Assembly: GCA_020627535.1 (NCBI GenBank)
Contig: JAHDGU010000001.1
Span: forward strand, 164,670 to 228,669
Direction: 5' to 3'
Origin: Saprospiraceae bacterium
Lineage (GTDB): Bacteria; Bacteroidota; Bacteroidia; Chitinophagales; Saprospiraceae
Length of the DNA: 64,000 bases
Shown: in pieces, positions 1-64,000 of the stretch
Layout of the letters: each line of letters starts with the position of its first letter
Position numbering within the stretch: the stretch's first letter is position 1
Translations under genes and position numbers: made by a program
Notes under the pieces: generated by a model
What the model saw: the letters and a program-made list of their open reading frames with translations, nothing else
What the model was told of the DNA's origin: nothing
Database searches by the model: none

Positions 1-3000
1 AACCCTTGATCATCATAACAATCCAGGAGGGACTCGGCTTGATCCGATTGAAAGCTTGCTGTGCCTTGGATTGTATCTCCACAGCTCACACGTGTAGCAG
101 TCTTACACTCTGACCCGGAGAGCTCGTAGGCACCGATATCCACATACTGATCCATGATGCGGAATGAACCTTGGAGGTCCGTCTCTACGTCTGACGGAAT
201 CGCATCATTGTTGCCCTGATTGATGGCAGGTGAGCCTGTGGAGAGGCGAAGATCTCCTGTGAGCGTATCTAAGAAGAGTGGATCAGCGTCAAGATTATTC
301 CCGCCGTCAGTGACATTGGGAGGCATGATGACCATTCCATCTTCTGTGTCATCTTCCAAGATGGAATATGCTATGGTGACACTTTCTGATGATGTACTAG
401 CGATCTGAGCTCCAGAACTATTTGGGGCAGTATTTCCCCAGAAAATTGATCCCTGAATATCCAAGGAGCTCATACCTTCAGAACTAATGGCACCTCCTTG
501 TTGAGAGGCCATGTTTTGTGAAAAACTACAGTTGATAATTTCGTGATCATTCTGGCCTACGCTTCCTGTACTAAATATTGCTCCACCGTTGGCACAACTA
601 TTTTTGTAAAAAGCACAGTTGATCATCTCCGTAGAGCAACTTCCTGTGGAGCCCCAGTTATATATAGCAGCTCCTGCCAGGCTTGTTTCGTTTTTTGTGA
701 ATGCACAATTCAAAATTCTTGTGCTATTATTCCCCAAAGAAGCTCCATCGTTGAAAATACCAGCGCCAAAGATTCCAGAATTGCTGCTGAAAGAACAATT
801 GGAAATCGTGGGACTGCAAATGTTTCCTCCTTCTCTACCTCTCGTGTGGATGCCTCCCCCGGCACTTTCCGGGAAGGGGCCATCGCAATTCCCTCCTCTA
901 AAGCTGAAGCCATCCACCACGCAGCTCGAGTCTATATTTCCACGCACACTTTCACCATGGATGATCATGATGTGATAGCTATTGTCAGTGCTATCCCCGG
1001 TGACACCTATATCTCCTGAGAGTATGGTCTCATGTGCACGGAAGTCTCGATCTGCCCGAGCTGTCTCTGATCCATCAAAGCCTCCATAGATGGCAAGATT
1101 CTTTGGGATATAAAAAGTCTTGTGTCTGTCACTGGCAGGTAGAATTCCCAAACTCACGGTATCCGTCGGAAGATATGTCCCCTCTGCCACCCATATCTCC
1201 CCTGCGAGACTATCACACTCACAGGCGAGGTCGATAGCGTCTTGCAGATCTCTGAATGCACCAGACCAGATATTGCCGTGCTCAGGACCAGTCGCATCGA
1301 TATCTACGAGCAGGGCATTTTGCGCGCCGGGACAGAGATTTTCGTATGCACCCATGTCTACGGTATCTCGTATGATCCGAGGACTGCCTGCAAGATCGGT
1401 CGTGATGCCATCTGGAATGCTATCATTGTTCCCTGCATTGATGGCAGGGCTACCTAGCGTCAGACGCAGATCGGTGCTGTCTCGGAAGAGCGGGTCGCTA
1501 TCTAGATTGTTACCGCCGTCGATGACATCAGTCGGGACTCCACCTCCTATGATGGAGTGGCTGAGAGTGGTATGGTTGAGTGATGAGCTCTCATAGATTT
1601 CGTTTTCTAGGTTGGCTTCATTCTCCCAGAAGATGCAATTGCTGATAGTGATTGAATCTGTTACAGAATTGTAAATAGCCCCTCCATTAATGACAGCCAG
1701 ATTTTTTGAAAAACTACAATTGGTGATTGAGGCGTAGCATGCATTATTATATATCGCTCCACCAATATTGGCCTTGTTATTCAAAAAGACAGAGTTGCTC
1801 AATTCATATCTGGTAGAAGCTGTATTCCAGGCGTAGATTGCGCCGCCATCATTTGAGACTTCATTCTTCAAGAATGAGCAGTTAGCGATCTTGGCAGAAG
1901 TTTCACCTAATCTGCCATCTAGAAAGATTGCACCGGCATACCGGCCTTGATTTTCTCTAAATGTACAGTTGGCAATGGTCGGATTACAGACATTCCCTGC
2001 ATTTCGTCCTCGCACATATATCGCTCCTCCAGCATAGGCAGGATTGGTGCCATTACATAGGCCATGCTCAAATATAAATCCGTCGATCTCACAGCTCCTA
2101 TCGATATTGCCTCGCTCCAGCTCCCCATGGATCAGCATGATATGATAGCTATTGTCAGTGCTATCCCCAGTGACGCCGATGTCTCCCGAGAGTATGGTCT
2201 CATGCTCTCTCCAGTCTCTCTGAGATCTGGCATACTCTGTCCCGTCAAATCCACCAAATAGCTTGACATTCTTTGGGATGTAAAATGTCTTGTCTCGGTC
2301 TGTAGCAGCGACATCTGGATTGAAAGTGAGCGTCGGCAGATAGGTGCCTTCTGCCACCCAGATCTCACCCACCAGAATATCACAGTCGCAGGCGAGCTCT
2401 ATGGCGTCTTGTAGGTCTGTGATGGCATCGGACCATCGAAGGCCATCGTCATTACCTGTGGCATCTATATCTACCAATAGCCTTGAACCAGTGCCAAGTG
2501 GACAGAAAAACTCATAAGCACCCATGTCTTGTACTTCGTTGATCATTCTTTTTCTTCCTCGGATGTCTGTGGGCTCAGATTGATCTATATTGGTCCCAGT
2601 GTTGAGACAAGGACTTATGTACTGCAGGCTGTAATCACCTCCTCCGACAAATCGTGGATTCTCAGAAATATTTCCGTTGCTACCATTGGTCAGACCGCTC
2701 CCAGTATATTCTTCTAGGCTATTATGATGGCCCACTGTTATATTGCCTCCACCCGCGATATCTGAGGGCGTGCCATTGTCAAGGTTGTTATAAAAGATGC
2801 AGTTGATCAGTGAGTCAATATTGGCGGCTTTTTCTAGGGCTCCACCCGTTCCATTGGACTCATTATCGGCGAAAGTGCAGTTGAATATATCCATGCTTCC
2901 CACCTCATGTGCCAGTGCTCCAGCTGTGGTGCCAGATGTATTCCCAACAAATAGACAGTTGGTAATACGATTGCTATCTGCACGGCTATTGACTGCACCA

Positions 3001-55440: not shown

Positions 55441-56736
55441 ATGAGTGCTTTGCAGCGCGAGTATCAAGAGACCATTGATTACCTTTTTAACACGATTCCT
55501 GCTTTTTTCAGAGCTGGAAAGACTGCCGTCAAAAAGGATCTCAGGAATATCAGACTCCTTTGTGATCGTCTAGGCGACCCACAGTCAGATCTTAAGTGCA
55601 TTCATATTGCTGGTACCAATGGAAAGGGCTCCGTGAGCCATATTCTAGCTAGTCTTTATCAAGCCTCAGGGCTCAAAGTAGGGCTCTACACCTCACCGCA
55701 TTATGTAGACTTCAGGGAGCGCATCAAGATCAATGGTGAGTGCTGTGATCAGCAATTTGTGATCGATTTTGTGTCTGCACATCGTGATCTTTTTGAGGAA
55801 ATCATTCCGTCATTTTTTGAAGTGACCGTGGCCATGGCCTTTCAGTATTTTAAAGAGCAATCAGTAGATCTTGCGATCATCGAAACAGGGCTAGGTGGAC
55901 GACTAGATAGCACCAATATCATTGAGAGTCAACAACAGATCATTACCACCATCGGCTTCGATCATATGGATTTTCTAGGAAACACGCTAGAGGAGATCGC
56001 TGGTGAAAAGGCGGGCATCATCAAGACAGGTGGATCAGTGGTCATAGGGGAAACTATCGTGGATAGTGCTCGAGAAGTCATTTTGGCGAAAGCCTCTGAG
56101 AAGAGAGCCGTGGTGGAAGCCACAGAGAGTGTGGTAGATGTGACGCTGAGTGATGCGGGGGAAATCCAGATCTCGACAGGAGGAGTAAGCTGCACTTGCC
56201 CATGTGACCTCTCAGCGAGCTACCAAGCTGATAATTTGAAGACAGCATTGGCAGCCTACATGATAGCCAATGAACCTTGGGAGGAGTCTGTCCTGGTGAG
56301 TATCTTGAGGCGTGGTCTGGCTGACATATCTCGTCGCACAGGCATGATCGGACGCTGGCAGCAGATACAAGATTCTCCTGTGGTGATTGTCGATGGCGCT
56401 CACAACGAACAGGCTTTTGAGCATCTAGTCAAGGAGATCGAGCGCAGAGGCCCCGACCACTGTATCGTCCTCCTCGGCTTCAGTGCCGACAAGGATGTGC
56501 AAGCACTGATTGATATGCTGCCAGCCGTCAAGCGTAAATTATTCACCTCAGCAGCAATGAGTCGTGCCATGAGCAAGGAACAATTTCAGGAGATTTCTGG
56601 CTCAGGAGACTTTGAGATGATAGAGAATTCTTCTCTTGCCTTATCTCAGGCAATTGCTTTAGCCGATGAGGATGATGTTGTTATCTGTAGTGGCAGCATT
56701 TATCTCGTGGGAGAGCTGCTGGCTAGTAGAGTATGA
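55441..56736 (+). CDS. folC: Bifunctional folylpolyglutamate synthase / dihydrofolate synthase
   Basis: HIAGTNGKGS P-loop, Mur-ligase fold, ETGLGGRLDSTN. Confidence 0.92.
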   Translation: MSALQREYQETIDYLFNTIPAFFRAGKTAVKKDLRNIRLLCDRLGDPQSDLKCIHIAGTNGKGSVSHILASLYQASGLKVGLYTSPHYVDFRERIKINGECCDQQFVIDFVSAHRDLFEEIIPSFFEVTVAMAFQYFKEQSVDLAIIETGLGGRLDSTNIIESQQQIITTIGFDHMDFLGNTLEEIAGEKAGIIKTGGSVVIGETIVDSAREVILAKASEKRAVVEATESVVDVTLSDAGEIQISTGGVSCTCPCDLSASYQADNLKTALAAYMIANEPWEESVLVSILRRGLADISRRTGMIGRWQQIQDSPVVIVDGAHNEQAFEHLVKEIERRGPDHCIVLLGFSADKDVQALIDMLPAVKRKLFTSAAMSRAMSKEQFQEISGSGDFEMIENSSLALSQAIALADEDDVVICSGSIYLVGELLASRV

Positions 56737-59458
56737 GCGGAAACTGCTGTCGCGTTTCGCCGTCCAGTAATTCAAGAATGTAGTATCCCGAAGGCAAATG
56801 CGCAAGATCTTTCGTAGTCCTGAACATTCTACCTATCTCTGACATCTCTGTCCATCTTTCAAGGCTTCTTCCTTGAAGATCCCAGATTGTCAGTTGCACC
56901 AACTCACTCTTGGCATCAGGATACCGAATTTGAATATACCCTTGTGTTGGATTTGGAAAGGCCGTTAGTCGTTCAAAATTGGGAAATTCCTCTGTATAGA
57001 CTACGTTACTGACCAGGTGCATTCGATCCTCAGCGATACCCTTGATGAAGTAGAAGCTCTCTCCAAAAAGTGGCTTATTGTCTCTGGCGGTTCCTTCGCT
57101 ACCAGAGAATCCATCCAGCGCATCATAGAATTTGAAAGGCTCATCTTTAGGTGCTCTCCAGAGCTCAACCTGAGTGATTCCTACACTAGATCCGATGAGC
57201 TCAAATGGCAGATCAATGTAGGTGTTCTTAACGTCAGCGCTCAGAACGAGACTTCGATCTTCATCGAGCAAGCAATTTGGGTAAATCTCCACTTCATCTA
57301 TGGTAGACAGACCTTGTGGATCTGTCACAGTCAATCTGATGCGATACCAAAATGTCTCGAGATTACAAGGCGTAGGTAAAAGGTCGGCCACTGGTGACGT
57401 CGCTCGGATGACCGGTTCCTCATGAAAGTGAGTATTGTGATGAAAAAAGACTTGCCACTCGTATGTCAGTTCGTCTTCGAGGCTTTGAGCATCTGATACC
57501 TCTGCTCTCAGCTTGTAGAAATGGTCATCATCCTGGTCATAGATGTCTCCGTCGAGAGGAGCGGTAATCCTGACTTGTGGAGGCGAGTTGTCAAGGTGGA
57601 TAGTCGCTGTTGCCGTATCTGAGCGATCAGCACTGTCAGTGACGACCAACTGCACATCTTGTGTCGATGGGCCGTTTGCTGCACTAGTGAAGGTCCTCTG
57701 GAGCGATACCTCGGTCGATCCGCTTCCATCTGGAAGTAGCCACTCATAAGTCAATGGGAGATCTAGAGGATGAGAGCTGCCACTAGCATCAAGATCGATG
57801 GTCAGTGGGCTTTCGCCAAAATGAGTTGAGAGCTTGATCTCTGCTCTTGGAGGCTGATCTGTGCCAAAAGAGATGCGCACGATCGTGTCTTGATAAACCC
57901 TTGTATAGTAAATGTCTTCGGTGATGGGATTGATATTGACCGTGACGACATCTGGCGTAGAAGTGGCGAAGCTGTCAATCTTTGTCACGCGGAATATCTC
58001 ATCCTCTTCTTCAATCACGACTGAGTGGATAAAGCCGTAGAAGTCCGAGAAGATCACGCGCCCTTGATACTCCTCTGGGAGCTTGCTGCCCTGATAGACG
58101 AAGCTAGGGATGCAAGAGAAGCCTGCCATGGTAAAGCCATCAATGATCGCCTCTTCATCCTCGAGATTATAACTGATATCATTGCCATTATCATCGAAAG
58201 AGCCTGCAATGGTTCTCGGCGGATTATTCCAGTTGATATTGGCATAGTTGAACTGAGGTCTAGTATGGATGTGCTTGTACTCCTCTGATATCTCGATTTC
58301 TGGATTGCATTGGTTGGGGAATGCTCTAGGCGAAAAGAGCTTGGGTTGGCGGACGAGTTCATCATAGCTATGAAGGCGCTGTGTACAGGAGGCTCCGTCA
58401 TAGAGTGGGTTGGGCGCAAGGTAATTGGTCGTATCTAGCGAACGGAATGTCCAGCTGAATCCTTGGCCTTCATATTTGGGCCAGCCGAGATTTTCTCCCG
58501 GGCCATGGATGATATTGAATTCTTCATACTGCCAGCTTCCTACATCTCCCATGATGAGAGTACCAGGGCGACCGGCATCGGGATTTGTAGATCCAGTGTT
58601 CGGGATCTTGATGAACTTAAAGGGATTGCGCATGCCCATCGCATACACCTTTGATCTCCATGAGTCTGGCTTTTCTGCGTCATACCAGGGATTGCTAGGA
58701 ATACCCAAGCCAGTTTCTGGATCAAAGCGTAGGATCTTTCCGCTGGGCGAGTCAATATTTTGAGCGCGCCAAGCACCGACATTGAGCTCAGGTTTGAGGA
58801 TGCCATCATCGATTGCCTGCGCATACCAAGTCTCTGGTGAAGAGCCCACATCGCCTGACTGGAAGCTGGCAGCATCTCCTACAGAGAGAAGGAGAGTGCC
58901 ATCAGTCCCAAATACTAGGCTACCCATGCCATGGGATATCATCAGGATGGGGATTTGATCTGTGATCTCTTTACCGAGGATGATTTTGCGACTATTGGGG
59001 ACAAGTGTGCTGAAGTTGGTGGTAGGATCGAGTGTGTATCGTGTGACTCTGCCGATCGTAGCTTCACTGTTTTGATTCACTTCTGGGTCATATTCAGCCG
59101 TACCGAAGTAGAGCAAGTGGTGGCGATCAACGACATAGGCTAGATAGATATCTCCACTTGTCTCAAAGTCTGGAGCAAGGGCCAAACTTGTAAGACCGTG
59201 ATCAGCATAGGCAGCGACCTCTTCCGATATATCCAGGACCGGCTCGGATGTGATCTTTCCATTGAGAGTCATGATGTAGACCTTTCCATCTTTGGAAAAG
59301 ACATAGCCTTGACCATTATGGTCAAATTCGATTCCCAGAGGATTGGAAACCTCATGTTCTATTACCTCATGAAAAAAGCCTTCCGGCAACTCTGGACTTT
59401 GTGACCAAAGACCCCAAGATGAAATGAATAGCGTAGCAATCAGCACATATCGAGACAT
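56723..59458 (-). CDS. Secreted PQQ-dependent sugar (glucose/sorbosone) dehydrogenase-like beta-propeller with PKD-like domain(s) and a T9SS type-A sorting domain
   Basis: Signal peptide MSRYVLIATLFISSWGLWSQ from 59458. GSDH-type motifs (GLTSLALAPDF, MGMRNPFKF). PKD-like LDASGSSHPLDLPLTYEWLLPDGS. C-terminal FPNPTQGYIQIRY...GYYILELLDG. Confidence 0.7.
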   Translation of the reverse strand: MSRYVLIATLFISSWGLWSQSPELPEGFFHEVIEHEVSNPLGIEFDHNGQGYVFSKDGKVYIMTLNGKITSEPVLDISEEVAAYADHGLTSLALAPDFETSGDIYLAYVVDRHHLLYFGTAEYDPEVNQNSEATIGRVTRYTLDPTTNFSTLVPNSRKIILGKEITDQIPILMISHGMGSLVFGTDGTLLLSVGDAASFQSGDVGSSPETWYAQAIDDGILKPELNVGAWRAQNIDSPSGKILRFDPETGLGIPSNPWYDAEKPDSWRSKVYAMGMRNPFKFIKIPNTGSTNPDAGRPGTLIMGDVGSWQYEEFNIIHGPGENLGWPKYEGQGFSWTFRSLDTTNYLAPNPLYDGASCTQRLHSYDELVRQPKLFSPRAFPNQCNPEIEISEEYKHIHTRPQFNYANINWNNPPRTIAGSFDDNGNDISYNLEDEEAIIDGFTMAGFSCIPSFVYQGSKLPEEYQGRVIFSDFYGFIHSVVIEEEDEIFRVTKIDSFATSTPDVVTVNINPITEDIYYTRVYQDTIVRISFGTDQPPRAEIKLSTHFGESPLTIDLDASGSSHPLDLPLTYEWLLPDGSGSTEVSLQRTFTSAANGPSTQDVQLVVTDSADRSDTATATIHLDNSPPQVRITAPLDGDIYDQDDDHFYKLRAEVSDAQSLEDELTYEWQVFFHHNTHFHEEPVIRATSPVADLLPTPCNLETFWYRIRLTVTDPQGLSTIDEVEIYPNCLLDEDRSLVLSADVKNTYIDLPFELIGSSVGITQVELWRAPKDEPFKFYDALDGFSGSEGTARDNKPLFGESFYFIKGIAEDRMHLVSNVVYTEEFPNFERLTAFPNPTQGYIQIRYPDAKSELVQLTIWDLQGRSLERWTEMSEIGRMFRTTKDLAHLPSGYYILELLDGETRQQFPLILY

Positions 59459-59468
59459 GGACTCAAAG

Positions 59469-60410
59469 CTAAGGAGTATCCACATCTTGAGCTACTTCTT
59501 CTGCTTCCATCAGGCGATAAGTGTCTTGGTTGACAATGATGCTGGTATTGAGCTCAAAGCCGATCAGGAGTATCAAGGAATTGAGCTGAAACCACACCAT
59601 GATCAAGACCAGAGATCCGATCGACCCGTAGATCTTATTCCATGCCCCAAATTGATTGGCTATGTAGCTCAGAATCAAAGTGCACAGTATCGACAGTATT
59701 GTGGCGAGTATCGTCCCTGGACTGAAGAAACTCACCTTGCGACGGAAAGATGGCCCCAATTTATAGATGACACTGATGATGCTGTAGAAGAGAAAGAGAA
59801 TGGCCATCCACTTGACCACTGTCAGCATATTCACAGCAAATCGAGAAAGATTGAGCAAGTCAAGGGCAGCCAGTGTCAGTCGATTGCCAAGGAGAATAAG
59901 TATGACGCTGGTTGCACCTAGCAAGAAAAGAAAGAAGGTCAAGAGTATAGCAATACCGCGCTTCTTAAGACCTGATCGACGCTTGAATGAGATCTTGTAC
60001 TCCTTGTTGAAGCCTCGCATCATATTGATCATTCCATTGCTGCTGAAAAATAGTGCCGCCAAAAAACCTATGCTCAGGAGACCACCTCTTTTGATATTAT
60101 TGAGTTCACTGACGAGGTCAGTAATGAATATTTCAAACTCATCAGGGAAAAACTCTAGAAGCTTAAATTCCAAAAAGCTCTCGGCGCTACTATACGGGAT
60201 ATACGTAATCAGAGTGATCCCCACGATGATCAGCGGAAACAGAGAAATGAAAAAACTGAAAGCCATCGAGTTAGCCCTCATCATGACATTGTCCTTTTTG
60301 ATCTCTTGCCAGATGAAGCTCATGACCTCGTAGATGCTTAAGCCTTTGAAGCCAGCAAAACTCCTTGACTTACTCCATTGGATGAGGGCGGATCTGAGAC
60401 TGGATATCAT
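59469..60410 (-). CDS. YihY/BrkB-family membrane protein
   Basis: Six TM helices. N-terminal WQEIKKDNVMMRANSMAFSFFISLFPL is typical of the family. Confidence 0.8.
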   Translation of the reverse strand: MISSLRSALIQWSKSRSFAGFKGLSIYEVMSFIWQEIKKDNVMMRANSMAFSFFISLFPLIIVGITLITYIPYSSAESFLEFKLLEFFPDEFEIFITDLVSELNNIKRGGLLSIGFLAALFFSSNGMINMMRGFNKEYKISFKRRSGLKKRGIAILLTFFLFLLGATSVILILLGNRLTLAALDLLNLSRFAVNMLTVVKWMAILFLFYSIISVIYKLGPSFRRKVSFFSPGTILATILSILCTLILSYIANQFGAWNKIYGSIGSLVLIMVWFQLNSLILLIGFELNTSIIVNQDTYRLMEAEEVAQDVDTP

Positions 60411-60905: not shown

Positions 60906-60913
60906 TAATTTTG
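60906..60913 (+). promoter_or_regulatory. Candidate -7 promoter box TAATTTTG for the 60931-64000 operon
   Basis: Exact TAnnTTTG, 17 nt upstream of the ATG at 60931. Confidence 0.4.
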
Positions 60914-60930
60914 TAGTCGAATCTACACAG

Positions 60931-61620
60931 ATGTCAGGCATACTCAATAAGATGAAAGGTCTCTTTGTCACAGAGACCGGGGGAACCACTTCAAAAAGCA
61001 AATCGACCAAGGACGAAGCTAAGCCTGAAGAGGAAGTTGAACAAGTATCTCCACAGTCACGCCCATCAGAGGTCACACTAGAGATTGCCGATGTAGAAGG
61101 GCAAGTTGATGACAAGTTTCTTGAAATCTTGCTCAATGCGATGAATGAGGCCAATACCCCGGGTTTTGACTACCTCGAGTATAAGAGATCTCTTGTGAGC
61201 TTGCGCGAAATGAACATGGATGAGCCCACTCGCTATAAGGCGGCCTATGCAACAGCAGAAGCGATGGGGGCCAACCCCGCAGCACTACAAAACAGTGCAA
61301 AGTACTATCTCGATATACTCGGCAAAGAAGATGCGAAGTTTCTGGACGCACTCAAGGCTCAGTCGGTAAAGCGGCTATCTGGTGCTCAGGAGGCCATACA
61401 AGATCTTGAATCTGGAATTCAAGATAAGATCTCTCAGATCGAAAGACTCTCTCAGGAGATCGAAGAGGCAAAATCTGAGCTTTCGCTCAAAAAACAAGAG
61501 CTAGAAGCCAGTCAAGAAAAGCTTGGAAGAACCAAAGCAAACTTTGAAGCCTCCTACTCAAATCTCAGAGATCAGATTGCAAGTGATCTCCAAAACATAT
61601 CAAAATACCTCGCCGGCTAA
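60931..61620 (+). CDS. Hypothetical coiled-coil protein with an N-terminal amphipathic helix
   Basis: MSGILNKMKGLF, an acidic/Ser-rich linker, a helical domain (GFDYLEYKRSL...RYKAAYATAEAMG), and a C-terminal heptad coiled coil (IQDKISQIERLSQEIEEAKSELSLKKQELEASQEKL). No family recognised. Confidence 0.6.
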   Translation: MSGILNKMKGLFVTETGGTTSKSKSTKDEAKPEEEVEQVSPQSRPSEVTLEIADVEGQVDDKFLEILLNAMNEANTPGFDYLEYKRSLVSLREMNMDEPTRYKAAYATAEAMGANPAALQNSAKYYLDILGKEDAKFLDALKAQSVKRLSGAQEAIQDLESGIQDKISQIERLSQEIEEAKSELSLKKQELEASQEKLGRTKANFEASYSNLRDQIASDLQNISKYLAG

Positions 61621-61625
61621 GGAAT

Positions 61626-62648
61626 ATGGCAGAACAAAAACCTAAGACATTTTGGCGAAAGCCTGAAGGAAAACTGGGAGCTATAGTCCTCGCAGGTCTG
61701 ATCATCGGCGCAGGTGCGATTATCACAGCAAGCCTATCGGCCATAGCTAGTTTCGTAGCGACTACGCTGGGACTAGCGCTAAGTCTGCTTGCTCTCGGTG
61801 TGATCATTTTTGTAGCACTTGATAGCAAGGCACGCAGCCTCATCAGCTATATGTACAAGAGTGTGATGCGATGGATTACTGGACTATTTATCGAGATGGA
61901 TCCTATCGCAATTCTCAGAGGCTATGTCTCTGACCTCAAGGCCAATCTGCGAAAGATGAATCGCCAGGTGACGCAGCTCCGCGGCCAGATGCACAAGCTC
62001 AAAGAGCTGATACTCAACAATCAGAAGCAAATCCAATCCAATCTAGAGCTCGCTTCACAAGCAAAGGACACCAACCAACAGAAGGTCATGATCCTCAAGT
62101 CTAGAAAGGCAGGACGACTCAAAGAGTCGAACATGCGCCTTGAAGATCTCTACAAGAGGATGGAGGTGCTCTACAGAGTGCTCTTCAAAATGTATGAGAA
62201 CTCGGAGATCATGATGGAGGACATCAAGGATCAAGTTGAGGTCAAAGAGCAAGAGCGAAAGGCCATCAGAGCATCACATGGCGCTATGAAGTCAGCGATG
62301 AATATCATCAACGGCAATCAAGACAAGCGCTACATGTTTGATATGGCTCTCGAGGCTATCGCCGATGATGTCAGTCAGAAAGTGGGGGAGATGGAGCGCT
62401 TCATGGATATGAGTGAGGGCTTCATGAATAGCATTGATTTGCAGAATGGTGTCTTTGAAGAAGAAGGCCTGAAGATGCTCGAGAAATGGGAAAAAGAGGG
62501 GACGTCACTCCTGCTCGGAGAAAGCAAAGAGACTCTCTTGCTACAAGCCAATGACGACAGCGACGTCCTTGATCTTGACTCACCTATCGCCAAGCCTGAG
62601 CCCGTCAAAGCACGCGGTGGCAACCAGTACGACACATTTTTTGAATAA
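61626..62648 (+). CDS. Membrane-anchored PspA/IM30-like (ESCRT-III-superfamily-like) helical protein
   Basis: A two-TM hairpin (LGAIVLAGLIIGAGAIITASL...LGLALSLLALGVIIFVAL), then about 250 aa of all-helical sequence starting FIEMDPIAILRGYVSDLKANLRKMNRQVTQLRGQMHKLKE...ASQAKDTNQQKVMILKSRK. This has the layout of the PspA helical hairpin. The assignment is by pattern only. Confidence 0.5.
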   Translation: MAEQKPKTFWRKPEGKLGAIVLAGLIIGAGAIITASLSAIASFVATTLGLALSLLALGVIIFVALDSKARSLISYMYKSVMRWITGLFIEMDPIAILRGYVSDLKANLRKMNRQVTQLRGQMHKLKELILNNQKQIQSNLELASQAKDTNQQKVMILKSRKAGRLKESNMRLEDLYKRMEVLYRVLFKMYENSEIMMEDIKDQVEVKEQERKAIRASHGAMKSAMNIINGNQDKRYMFDMALEAIADDVSQKVGEMERFMDMSEGFMNSIDLQNGVFEEEGLKMLEKWEKEGTSLLLGESKETLLLQANDDSDVLDLDSPIAKPEPVKARGGNQYDTFFE

Positions 62649-62667
62649 GCAAGCATAGCATAAACAA

Positions 62668-64000
62668 ATGGCACGTAGACTCACGACATTCTCCAAACTC
62701 TTGATCACACTTTTGATCTTGGCGCTGATCTTCTTCGGTGGTAGATTTCTCTTGCAGAAGACAGGGCTAGGAGATAGCATCCTCAAAGGCGAACAAACAG
62801 AACAGAGTTCTGGCACATCAAACTCACAAAATGGGAGTAGTTCCGCGACGGGAACCCAAGATAAGAAGGGTGGCGGACTATTCGGAAAGTCGGACAAGGA
62901 AAGTAGCAGCCAGGCTGATGGCAATGCGGTAGGAAGTGACGATACAGACGCTATTGATGTGCATGTTGTAACATGGGGCGGGTTTGCTCCGGGTATCTAC
63001 TTCAATGAAGGTCTCAAGCACAGCGAGTATTCACGCTATTGGAAAGAATATGGTCTCAAGGTCAATTTCGTCTTGATGGATGACATGGTCTCCTCTTGGC
63101 AGGCTTGGAAAGGAGATCAACTCGATATGAGGGCCAATACATTTGATGGGATGCTCCTCGAGTATGAAGGTATGACCAAGGATGAGCCAGTGGTGGTGCT
63201 ACAAACTGACTGGTCACGTGGTGGAGATGTCTTGATAGGGCAACGGGGTATCAATAGTATCAATGATCTGAAAGGTAAGAGAGTGGTACTCACACCGATG
63301 ACGCCTTCTCAGACTTTTTTGATGATGGCGCTAGATGCGGCAGGGATGAGCTTGGATGATATCACAATCATCGAATCTGTAGATAATCCCACAGCAGCGA
63401 CTATCTTCAAAGCCGGAGAGGCGGATGCAGCTGTCGTATGGAGTCCTACACACTTTGAGATCATGGAGACAATGCCTGGTTCCCAAGTGATCCAGTCGAC
63501 CAATGATGCGGCCTACGCCTTGGCGGGTATTCTCTACGCGAAGAAAGACTACGTCGACGCCAATCAGGACAAGGTGCAGAAGTTCTATGAAGGCTGGATG
63601 AAAGCGTCAGCCGAACTCCGCAATGAAGCTAACAAAGAAAAAGCCGCGAAGATCCTAGGTGAGGCCTTTAACCTACCCGTCGAGGCGACAATGGGGATGA
63701 TGTTTGACGCCTACCATGCGACACATGGTGACAATAAGAGCTTCTTTGGCCTGCGCAATGATGGAGCCTTCAGTGGACAAGCACTCTATGACAATGTCAA
63801 TCGACTTTTCACCAAGCAAGGGATCATCAATGAGGCTCTTCCGTCCTACAGAAGTATATTGGCGAGCAGCTCAGTGAGTCGGACCTCGCTCACTGGTGCC
63901 TCTCATGATGGAGAGAAGTCGAAGAAGTTTACAGCGGCCACTACAGAGCAAAAGAAGGCCAAGGCCATGAGTACGAAGCCAGTCTCCATCAATTTCGCGA
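62668..64000 (+). CDS. Membrane-anchored NMT1/SsuA/NrtA-type solute-binding protein; 3' end beyond the window
   Basis: Not in the track (no stop in the window). From the ATG at 62668 it reads MARRLTTFSKLLITLLILALIFFGG (TM anchor), a Ser/Gly/Gln-rich linker, then VVTWGGFAPGIY...DLKGKRVVLTPMTPSQTFLMMALDAAGMSLDDI...GEADAAVVWSPT... typical of the nitrate/sulfonate/bicarbonate binding fold. The frame is open to the window end (444 codons). Confidence 0.75.
   Translation, partial: MARRLTTFSKLLITLLILALIFFGGRFLLQKTGLGDSILKGEQTEQSSGTSNSQNGSSSATGTQDKKGGGLFGKSDKESSSQADGNAVGSDDTDAIDVHVVTWGGFAPGIYFNEGLKHSEYSRYWKEYGLKVNFVLMDDMVSSWQAWKGDQLDMRANTFDGMLLEYEGMTKDEPVVVLQTDWSRGGDVLIGQRGINSINDLKGKRVVLTPMTPSQTFLMMALDAAGMSLDDITIIESVDNPTAATIFKAGEADAAVVWSPTHFEIMETMPGSQVIQSTNDAAYALAGILYAKKDYVDANQDKVQKFYEGWMKASAELRNEANKEKAAKILGEAFNLPVEATMGMMFDAYHATHGDNKSFFGLRNDGAFSGQALYDNVNRLFTKQGIINEALPSYRSILASSSVSRTSLTGASHDGEKSKKFTAATTEQKKAKAMSTKPVSINFA

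Follow-up and report, generated by a model that had tools for sequence, protein, structure and literature searches.

Three same-strand genes, here called a, b and c, lie at the end of a stretch of 64,000 nucleotides (the window) from a Saprospiraceae bacterium (phylum Bacteroidota; GenBank assembly GCA_020627535.1, contig JAHDGU010000001.1, forward-strand positions 164,670 to 228,669). As relatives show, they open an inner-membrane cassette of five genes. We lean, without great confidence, towards a picture in which an assembly of proteins a and b would act together with an ATP-binding cassette (ABC) importer that is stapled to the cell wall. Protein b most probably belongs, as a true but distant relative, to the PspA/ESCRT-III superfamily, with a transmembrane (TM) hairpin in place of the amphipathic helix α0. 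Protein c carries a solute-binding domain and is followed by permease and ABC ATPase genes in relatives, and the five genes occur in the same order across Saprospiraceae, Aquimarina and huge phages, with b identities of 20–45%.

PspA, Vipp1 and ESCRT-III are universal membrane-repair and membrane-remodelling proteins. The cassette would be a natural case of an ESCRT-III-like protein that is hard-wired in the membrane and whose gene is linked to those for a wall-anchored periplasmic binding protein and an ABC ATPase. Since b retains about 70% identity across the family and the cassette is carried by the largest known phages, it is likely to do something both important and portable. How bacterial members that lack Vps4-like ATPases are targeted and regulated is, in the account of Ravi et al. 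(2024, PMC11237479), still open. The question is directly testable because there are cultured hosts (Aquimarina spp., Flavilitoribacter nigricans and Portibacter marinus) and a cultured jumbo phage, RsoM2USA, which grows on Ralstonia.

Protein b and its partners

The hydropathy of protein b reveals a single hydrophobic block (residues 14–73), which is resolved as two TM helices in an AlphaFold2 (AF2) model, with predicted helices at 13–35, 37–44 and 47–65 and a predicted local distance difference test (pLDDT) score of ~94 in this region. Positive charges lie at both ends of the hairpin and both termini are therefore predicted to be cytoplasmic (N-in/C-in). The earlier note on this DNA had described a two-TM hairpin fused to an all-helical region, and hydropathy, flanking charges and model now agree on it. 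The model (m903913311639) was built from a 120-sequence alignment and reached a pLDDT of 84.8 and a predicted template modelling (pTM) score of 0.72; with 27 close homologues as input, a previous model had been poor, at a pLDDT of 63. After the membrane hairpin, helices 93–148 and 152–225 (56 and 74 residues) form a long hairpin, followed by helices 233–269, 279–290 and 300–309 (37, 12 and 10 residues). Protein b thus has the ESCRT-III arrangement of a long α1–α2/3 hairpin and then α4 and α5. In the PspA and Vipp1 structures of 2021, α1 and α2/3 of PspA are reportedly close in length to the two long helices of b. The amphipathic N-terminal helix α0 of PspA and Vipp1 is missing, its place being taken by the two-TM hairpin, so that the long helical hairpin domain would stay at the inner membrane at all times, on its cytoplasmic side.

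The relation to PspA is most apparent across the family. The PF04012 (PspA_IM30) profile is matched by 25 of 120 diverse b family members, whereas any other family is matched by at most four. When some 15 members were scanned singly, their PF04012 alignments scored 18.6–32.7 bits (P0197 is the best at 32.7 bits, the others 18.6–28), and all of them place the DPI motif (residue ~89–105) on profile position 20–23 and end at position 109–204, several extending to position 185–204 of 220. The family as a whole therefore displays a remote similarity to PF04012 that is in register and runs over the full domain. With hhalign, b residues 96–231 are aligned to PspA 23–151, and a local hidden Markov model (HMM) of PspA plus Vipp1 falls in the same register; the hairpin-tip motif of b, A..A...G......L..R.AGRL, is paired with AKLALTNGEENLAREAL of Vipp1. 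In a Foldseek search with the b model the leading matches are CdvB2, Vipp1 and PspA, although none has an E below 0.018, and in the viral library the second match is a phage ‘PspA/IM30 family protein’. The same name is given by NCBI to some Aquimarina members of the b family.

There are also results that weigh against this assignment. The b protein of the window itself has no match to PF04012 at E ≤ 1, nor to any other Pfam family, and no family member scanned reaches the PF04012 gathering cut-off of 33.9 bits, so that formal membership fails. When PDB sequences were searched with b HMMs, whether from a shallow or a deep profile, nothing beyond coiled-coil noise came up, CHMP1B being at E ~6. 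Compared by hhalign with an alignment of enterobacterial PspA, the b family has a probability of 1%, rising to 4.5% when Vipp1 is added (range 1–5%), a value that counts neither way for homology because the template alignments are too shallow (effective number of sequences, Neff, 1.2–1.8); the search for homologues of Escherichia coli PspA gave only relatives at least 86% identical. Among the families listed for the b alignment A2, no member matches Pfam Snf7 at E ≤ 0.01. A TelA or XpaC identity for b was rejected, the sole trace being a phage ‘tellurite resistance protein’ at a Foldseek E of 0.18. The profile comparison that had been proposed for b thus favours PspA/IM30, at sub-threshold scores and in relatives only, and gives no Pfam match to TelA or XpaC, and the fold searches agree with it in part; with the fold matches and the NCBI naming, the earlier description of b as PspA/IM30-like is upheld.

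These weak scores could mean that b is a generic anchored coiled-coil or BAR-like bundle, and that its PF04012 matches are artefacts of composition. This is quite unlikely. Compositional matches would scatter, whereas the inspected alignments share one start and several cover most of the profile, and PF04012 is matched far more often than any other family. The lengths and order of the b helices also match those reported for PspA. In the profile study of Ravi et al. (PMC11237479), a TM-anchored protein in a similar operon is classed as a divergent Snf7.

The family of b is large and uniform. A single search returned more than 5000 homologues at ~70% identity, including an identical copy (P0001), and clustering at 50% identity left 1323 representatives, nearly all of 320–360 aa and with an identical layout. 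Across the family, identity is ~70% for b, ~38% for a and 45–65% for c. That b has so many homologues, and that a and c are conserved beside it, argues that all three genes are real. The high conservation of b relative to a fits a polymer with many contacts, as far as this can be read from alignments. A cytoplasmic FWxxPEGxxG motif precedes the hairpin, with F9, W10, P13, E14, G15 and G18 invariant in an alignment of b homologues. This N-terminal peptide (FWxRPEGxTG; 61626–61680, residues 1–18) and the C-terminal tail are common to Saprospiraceae and phage copies and have the look of docking peptides. The tail is retained as (D/E)(F/Y)xxFF in two phage-like contigs (L084 and L086) and may be a partner-binding peptide.

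Protein a has neither a TM segment, judged by hydropathy, nor a signal peptide, and its comparison with Pfam and the PDB gave only generic coiled-coil noise. By these comparisons it belongs to no known family and is treated here as an unnamed one, described from an alignment (A4) of 38 sequences that includes phage copies. The coiled coil, linker and helical domain of the earlier description are retained, but the proposed amphipathic helix resembling α0 is not established, since the hydrophobic moment of the N-terminal peptide is 0.25–0.29 against 0.42–0.57 for helix α0 of PspA and Vipp1. This peptide, LKSLF(I/V)xE, is kept from Saprospiraceae to the phage copies and resembles a docking peptide. 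An hhalign comparison of a with b gave a weak probability of 38%, with the a motif TP..L..SA.HYL aligned to the DPI motif of b; no in-register PspA match and no PF04012 match was found that would make a a PspA paralogue.

Gene c is cut by the end of the window, and orthologous loci were used to see past this point, in particular a locus from a Saprospiraceae metagenome-assembled genome (MAG; L001) whose b is 70% identical. Full-length c is ~530 aa in relatives. The window protein matches NMT1 at 3.5e-13 and SsuA_fam at 1e-24, in keeping with the TM anchor, linker and NMT1/SsuA/NrtA-type domain that had been noted previously, and it matches phrog_25518 along its length (2.4e-27). The L001 orthologue (530 aa) consists of an NMT1 domain with a C-terminal OmpA domain (PF00691), and its KPVSINFASGKF segment matches the end of c in the window; this domain was overlooked in the earlier note, as was the occurrence of the cassette in phages. 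Against the PDB, the OmpA part of the orthologue gives OmpA-family matches to 1.7e-12 and the binding domain weak TauA and SsuA matches, while phage copies of c score 59–74 bits against PF00691 (cut-off 27.2). As c combines an N-terminal anchor with an OmpA-like peptidoglycan-binding domain, its binding domain is predicted to be held between the inner membrane and the wall.

In the L001 operon, the genes for proteins a, b and c (222, 340 and 530 aa) are followed by those for a TauC/SsuC-like BPD_transp_1 permease of 361 aa and a TauB-like ABC_tran ATPase of 269 aa. The motifs of the ATPase are intact (Walker A GASGSGKST, signature LSGGQ, Walker B LMDEP and H-loop VTHD), and with the NMT1/SsuA-type binding protein and the permease the full parts list of a NitT/TauT importer is present. 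Since permease and ATPase follow c in relatives, c is likely to be the binding component of an ABC importer. All of the NCBIfam transporter matches score far under their cut-offs (for instance SsuA_fam 87 against 163.5 and TauA 35.8 against 304) and, as no substrate-specific equivalog cut-off is reached, no substrate can be assigned. W103, D160, S183-R184-G185-x-D187, D253, W258 and D355-N356 (nucleotides ~62974–63735) are near-invariant in 14 bacterial and phage copies and are candidate pocket residues; such a set of aromatic, acidic and arginine side chains would be appropriate for a small zwitterionic ligand. Bacteroidota and a 735-kb phage share the N-terminal anchor of c (MARRLTTFSKLLITLLIL), which is a separate small protein in RsoM2USA, which hints that the anchor has a role of its own, for example in packing on the TM hairpin of b.

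Distribution in Bacteroidota and huge phages

Matching stretches exist in at least 556 species-level genomes. Synteny was scored in a sample of 80 species-level Saprospiraceae/Lewinellaceae genomes, counting only loci with enough flank and correcting for stop-to-stop ORFs that overlap. Gene a directly precedes b at ~68 of 76 loci and c follows b at ~55 of 64, so the a-b-c order expected by the earlier note does hold across relatives. A permease and an ATPase follow c at ~36 of 53 loci, and c stands without them, within ~6 kb, at ~9 of 53 (among them L015, L046, L054, L062, L074 and L078, the last from Flavilitoribacter nigricans). Genes a and b are found alone at ~8 loci, for instance in Portibacter marinus (L009). 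That ~15% of the Saprospiraceae loci, as well as one Sphingobacteriales MAG, have a and b without c or the ABC genes speaks against an assembly that always works with an importer; coupling to transport is not obligatory, and transport appears to be inessential to the core.

The full order is also found outside Saprospiraceae. In Aquimarina sp. BL5 (Flavobacteriaceae, L096), a-b-c-permease-ATPase is followed by a small TM protein and then by a 634-aa AAA+ ATPase, and in the Sphingobacteriales MAG (L097) an AAA+ gene precedes a and b without a transporter. These single-domain AAA+ ATPases of 634–645 aa (PF00004 with AAA_lid_6; L096 13024–14928 and L097 5232–7169) have a long N-terminal region that holds a TerB-like KADGT(I/L)..EE motif. 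Their gene is found neither in the window nor in the 7-kb flanks of the Saprospiraceae loci, nor at the phage loci.

A tblastn search of GenBank phages with b identified 15 Lak megaphages of Prevotella (540–550 kb), a 735-kb phage (LR756501/LR756503) and the Ralstonia jumbo phage RsoM2USA. The phage cassette genes were located with HMMs built from the Saprospiraceae proteins, Lak-C1 being read with TAG as a sense codon, and loci in IMG/VR were found through a back-translated IDPIGIxKNY pattern. The full a-b-c-permease-ATPase order is present in the 735-kb phage, in Lak-C1 and in the phage-like metagenome contigs L084 and L086. About 12 IMG/VR contigs (19–215 kb) have the same five-gene order wherever the locus extends far enough, and a lies upstream of b in all phage loci examined. 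RsoM2USA has a shorter version, in which gp55 is a, gp54 is b, gp53 is a 122-aa TM-plus-linker protein like the anchor of c (L088 7935–8303) and gp52 is an NMT1_3 binding protein (2.4e-34); an OmpA domain is lacking there, and no ABC genes lie close by. The phage-like contig ENA k141_266566 (L084 1–3200 and 16881–17110, also L085), which has the b homologue P0269, carries genes for PARP, ThyX and a MazG-like PRA-PH protein as well as split PCRF/RF-1 release-factor open reading frames (ORFs), and this suggests a large phage, possibly with a recoded stop codon.

Judged from gene order, the five-gene cassette is a unit that moves between Bacteroidota chromosomes and huge phages. The recurrent core seen in these comparisons would be a, b and an NMT1-clan binding protein, the very three genes singled out in the earlier note, with the permease and ATPase as a frequent but dispensable extension.

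Proposed mechanism and related systems

In the mechanism that is proposed, the cytoplasmic domain of b, tethered by the membrane hairpin, would form an ESCRT-III-like assembly with a, which may serve as a co-polymer or as a regulator. This assembly would stabilise or shape the inner membrane at the site of the wall-stapled ABC importer. Protein c would span the periplasm from the inner membrane to the peptidoglycan and present its NMT1-type domain to the permease, the domain bringing a ligand from the periplasm that is transported or else acts as a signal. Alternatively, ligand binding and ATP turnover may control the polymer. For huge phages, the benefit of the cassette during infection would be that the inner membrane of the host is maintained or remodelled and, perhaps, that a solute is taken up. 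A functional coupling between the two halves is indicated by the retention of the cassette in very distant carriers and of the binding protein where the ABC genes are lost.

It is also conceivable, though rather unlikely, that two unrelated units share one operon, with a and b as a stress or scaffold pair beside an ordinary NitT/TauT nutrient importer for sulfonate, taurine, nitrate or a similar compound. Such an arrangement would explain why c, the permease and the ATPase make up a complete set of type I ABC importer parts with intact motifs, why a and b occur without the importer (L009, L031, L045, L051, L055, L060, L076, L097 and RsoM2USA), and why c lacks an adjacent permease and ATPase at ~9 of 53 loci. 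Chance linkage is nevertheless unlikely, since the five-gene order persists across Saprospiraceae, Flavobacteriaceae and huge phages at 20–45% b identity, and even in RsoM2USA, without ABC genes, a binding protein of the NMT1 clan and an anchor like that of c stay beside a and b. Moreover, independent lineages in Ravi et al. (PMC11237479) pair PBPB with a TM-anchored ESCRT-III-like protein. The earlier note had allowed that c might simply be the binding component of an ordinary importer unrelated to a and b; the first part of this holds, but the second does not, as the five genes travel together over that range of identity.

The phage copies raise the further question of whether the cassette primarily serves phages or mobile elements, for instance in superinfection exclusion, in the timing of lysis or as an anti-defence measure, with the Saprospiraceae copy as the remnant of a domesticated prophage. 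Its presence in the Lak megaphages, the 735-kb phage, RsoM2USA and ~12 IMG/VR contigs would fit, as would the phrog_25518 match of c. This explanation is highly unlikely, however, because the neighbourhood in Saprospiraceae is stable and chromosomal (BrkB/YihY, 4HBT thioesterase and a tRNA synthetase) with no phage genes nearby, the genes are present in at least 556 species-level genomes at ~70% identity, and PADLOC gives no specific match to a defence model. A vertically inherited host gene set that has been borrowed by phages fits these facts. A defence system as such was rejected, PADLOC returning only weak coiled-coil matches to JetC/LmuB/PbeC-type models.

A bolder version of the coupled cassette takes it as a self-contained, horizontally mobile machine, in which a wall-stapled, ligand-responsive ABC unit directs the place or time of assembly of a permanently anchored ESCRT-III-like polymer of b with a, and which huge phages of Bacteroidota and Proteobacteria use during long infections to remodel or preserve the inner membrane of the host. 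We regard this as rather doubtful. If true, no ESCRT-III-type remodelling system would have been shown before to serve bacteriophages, nor any to be coupled to an ABC transporter.

The proteins of the cassette resemble several known systems in part. Like PspA, Vipp1 (IM30) and LiaH, b has a long α1–α2/3 hairpin with shorter helices, an (E/I)DP motif opening α1, a similar tip motif and a place at the cytoplasmic membrane face. [quoted passage not shown] In the LiaI-LiaH system of Bacillus subtilis, a small membrane anchor recruits the PspA homologue, the two being separate proteins under LiaFSR. There, too, a PspA-family protein is kept at the membrane by TM helices, but in b the anchor and the PspA-like domain are fused, and no two-component system is adjacent. 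The NMT1/SsuA/TauA-type fold of c, the TauC/SsuC-like permease and the TauB-like ATPase are those of NitT/TauT importers (TauABC, SsuABC, NrtABCD/CmpABCD), from which the cassette differs in the TM anchor and C-terminal OmpA-like domain of c and in the genetic tie to a PspA-like module.

The closest precedent was noted from genomics only. Ravi et al. (2024, mSystems, PMC11237479; section 18 and Table S3) describe operons with PspA, a TM-anchored divergent Snf7, PBPB+OmpA, an ABC permease and an ATPase, often with a double AAA+ ATPase, and suggest a link of membrane remodelling with solute transport; the examples include OGG56892.1 from Handelsmanbacteria, AKJ06548.1 from Archangium and CBH24266.1 from Salinibacter. 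The claim in the earlier note that the combination had not been described therefore does not stand, and the operon type, PspA/ESCRT-III plus transporter, is to be taken as already known from that work. The operons there and the cassette share a helical or coiled-coil protein, an anchored ESCRT-III-type protein, PBPB-OmpA, a permease and an ATPase. In the Salinibacter example a ‘coiled-coil’ gene lies directly before the TM+Snf7 gene, as a does before b, and the AAA+ ATPase after the cassette in Aquimarina is likewise reminiscent of the examples of Ravi et al. The likening of b to their ‘SIG+TM+Snf7’ protein, and of a to their PspA or ‘Rmar_0091 coiled-coil’ protein, is by description only.

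There are also differences from this class (PMC11237479). Its co-occurrence of an anchored ESCRT-III-like protein, a binding protein with OmpA, a permease and an ATPase is found at L001, at L096 and at the phage loci, the window showing a, b and most of c. The accompanying canonical PspA and double AAA+ ATPase are not found: no canonical PspA is recognisable in the window, and no AAA+ gene lies there or within 7 kb in Saprospiraceae. The order also differs, being a-b-c-permease-ATPase here and PspA, PBPB+OmpA, permease, ATPase, TM+Snf7 and AAA+ in Handelsmanbacteria. As judged from gene content, the present cassette would be distinguished by its order, by the lack of canonical PspA or AAA+, by its strong conservation in Saprospiraceae and by its presence in huge phages. 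The part of Ravi et al. that treats these operons does not mention phages. In the literature that was searched, the Lak and huge-phage papers included, no report was found of the five genes in one order in Aquimarina, in huge phages and across the whole of Saprospiraceae, nor of the phage distribution of the cassette. The relevant terms are absent from a review of ESCRT-III systems in bacteria and archaea (2025), from the Psp survey of Popp et al. (2022) and from the Lak megaphage papers.

Locus layout and neighbouring genes

The features of the locus and the phage copies are listed in the table. All three ORFs lie where the earlier note had placed them, on one strand and separated by gaps of 5 bp (a-b) and 19 bp (b-c). 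The −7 box reported upstream of a, TAATTTTG, is likewise present and fits the Bacteroidota consensus. Of 58 related loci, 17 have TAnnTTTG within 100 nt upstream of gene a, where the background rate would be 0.06 per 100 nt, an approximately 5-fold enrichment, which makes a promoter at this site plausible; there is no −33 TTTG at the usual spacing from it.

Table. Features of the window (positions in its own numbering) and cassette loci in phages (positions in the accession given).
Feature	Position	Strand	Description	Basis
TAATTTTG	60906..60913	+	matches Bacteroidota sigma-A −7 element TAnnTTTG; 25 nt before gene a ATG; plausible promoter	
Gene a	60931..61620	+	229 aa, predicted cytoplasmic	ORF read
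a conserved N-terminal peptide	aa 1-15 (60931-60975)	+	MLKKLKSLF[IV]xE	
a linker	aa 16-60	+	variable, acidic/polar	
a helical domain	aa ~61-135	+	conserved, GFDYLEYK...TRY.SA.A.A..MG	
a coiled coil	aa ~136-229	+		alignment A4
Gene b	61626..62648	+	340 aa, membrane-anchored, probable divergent PspA/IM30-like (ESCRT-III superfamily) protein	ORF, alignments, AF2
b two-TM hairpin	61674..61823 (residues ~17-66)	+		hydropathy, flanking charges, AF2
b PspA-like helical domain	61896..62555 (residues ~91-310)	+	opens at DPI motif	AF2, PF04012 matches of relatives, hhalign
b C-terminal tail NQYDTFFE	62622..62645 (residues 333-340)	+	short, acidic-aromatic; N333, Q334, Y335, D336 and F339 invariant	
Gene c, partial	62668..64000	+	444 codons without stop, runs past window end	ORF, profile matches
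c signal-anchor TM	aa 4-31 (62668-62760 = residues 1-31)	+	one TM	hydropathy
c low-complexity linker	aa ~32-95	+	Ser/Gly/Gln	
c solute-binding domain	aa ~96-400	+	NMT1/SsuA/TauA-type	
c OmpA-like peptidoglycan-binding domain	last 8 window residues, KPVSINFA	+	opening of the domain	L001 orthologue alignment
GSDH-type protein	56723..59485	-	920 aa; glucose/sorbosone dehydrogenase-like, PKD and type IX secretion system (T9SS) C-terminal sorting domain	
Lak-C1 (L089)	MK250029.1 318154-332855		cassette	
735-kb uncultured phage (L090)	LR756501.1 643992-658678		cassette	
RsoM2USA (L088)	MG752970.1 34586-49437		a, b, anchor-like protein, binding protein	
IMG/VR loci	L092-L095, L098-L105		several with full cassette	

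Upstream of a, the opposite strand carries genes for the GSDH/PKD/T9SS-tail protein, a BrkB/YihY-like protein and a 4HBT thioesterase, all of them ordinary chromosomal genes; the last two also adjoin the cluster in a relative. The 920-aa protein is predicted to be a secreted T9SS cargo, and its gene shares 17 nt with the beginning of the BrkB-like gene.

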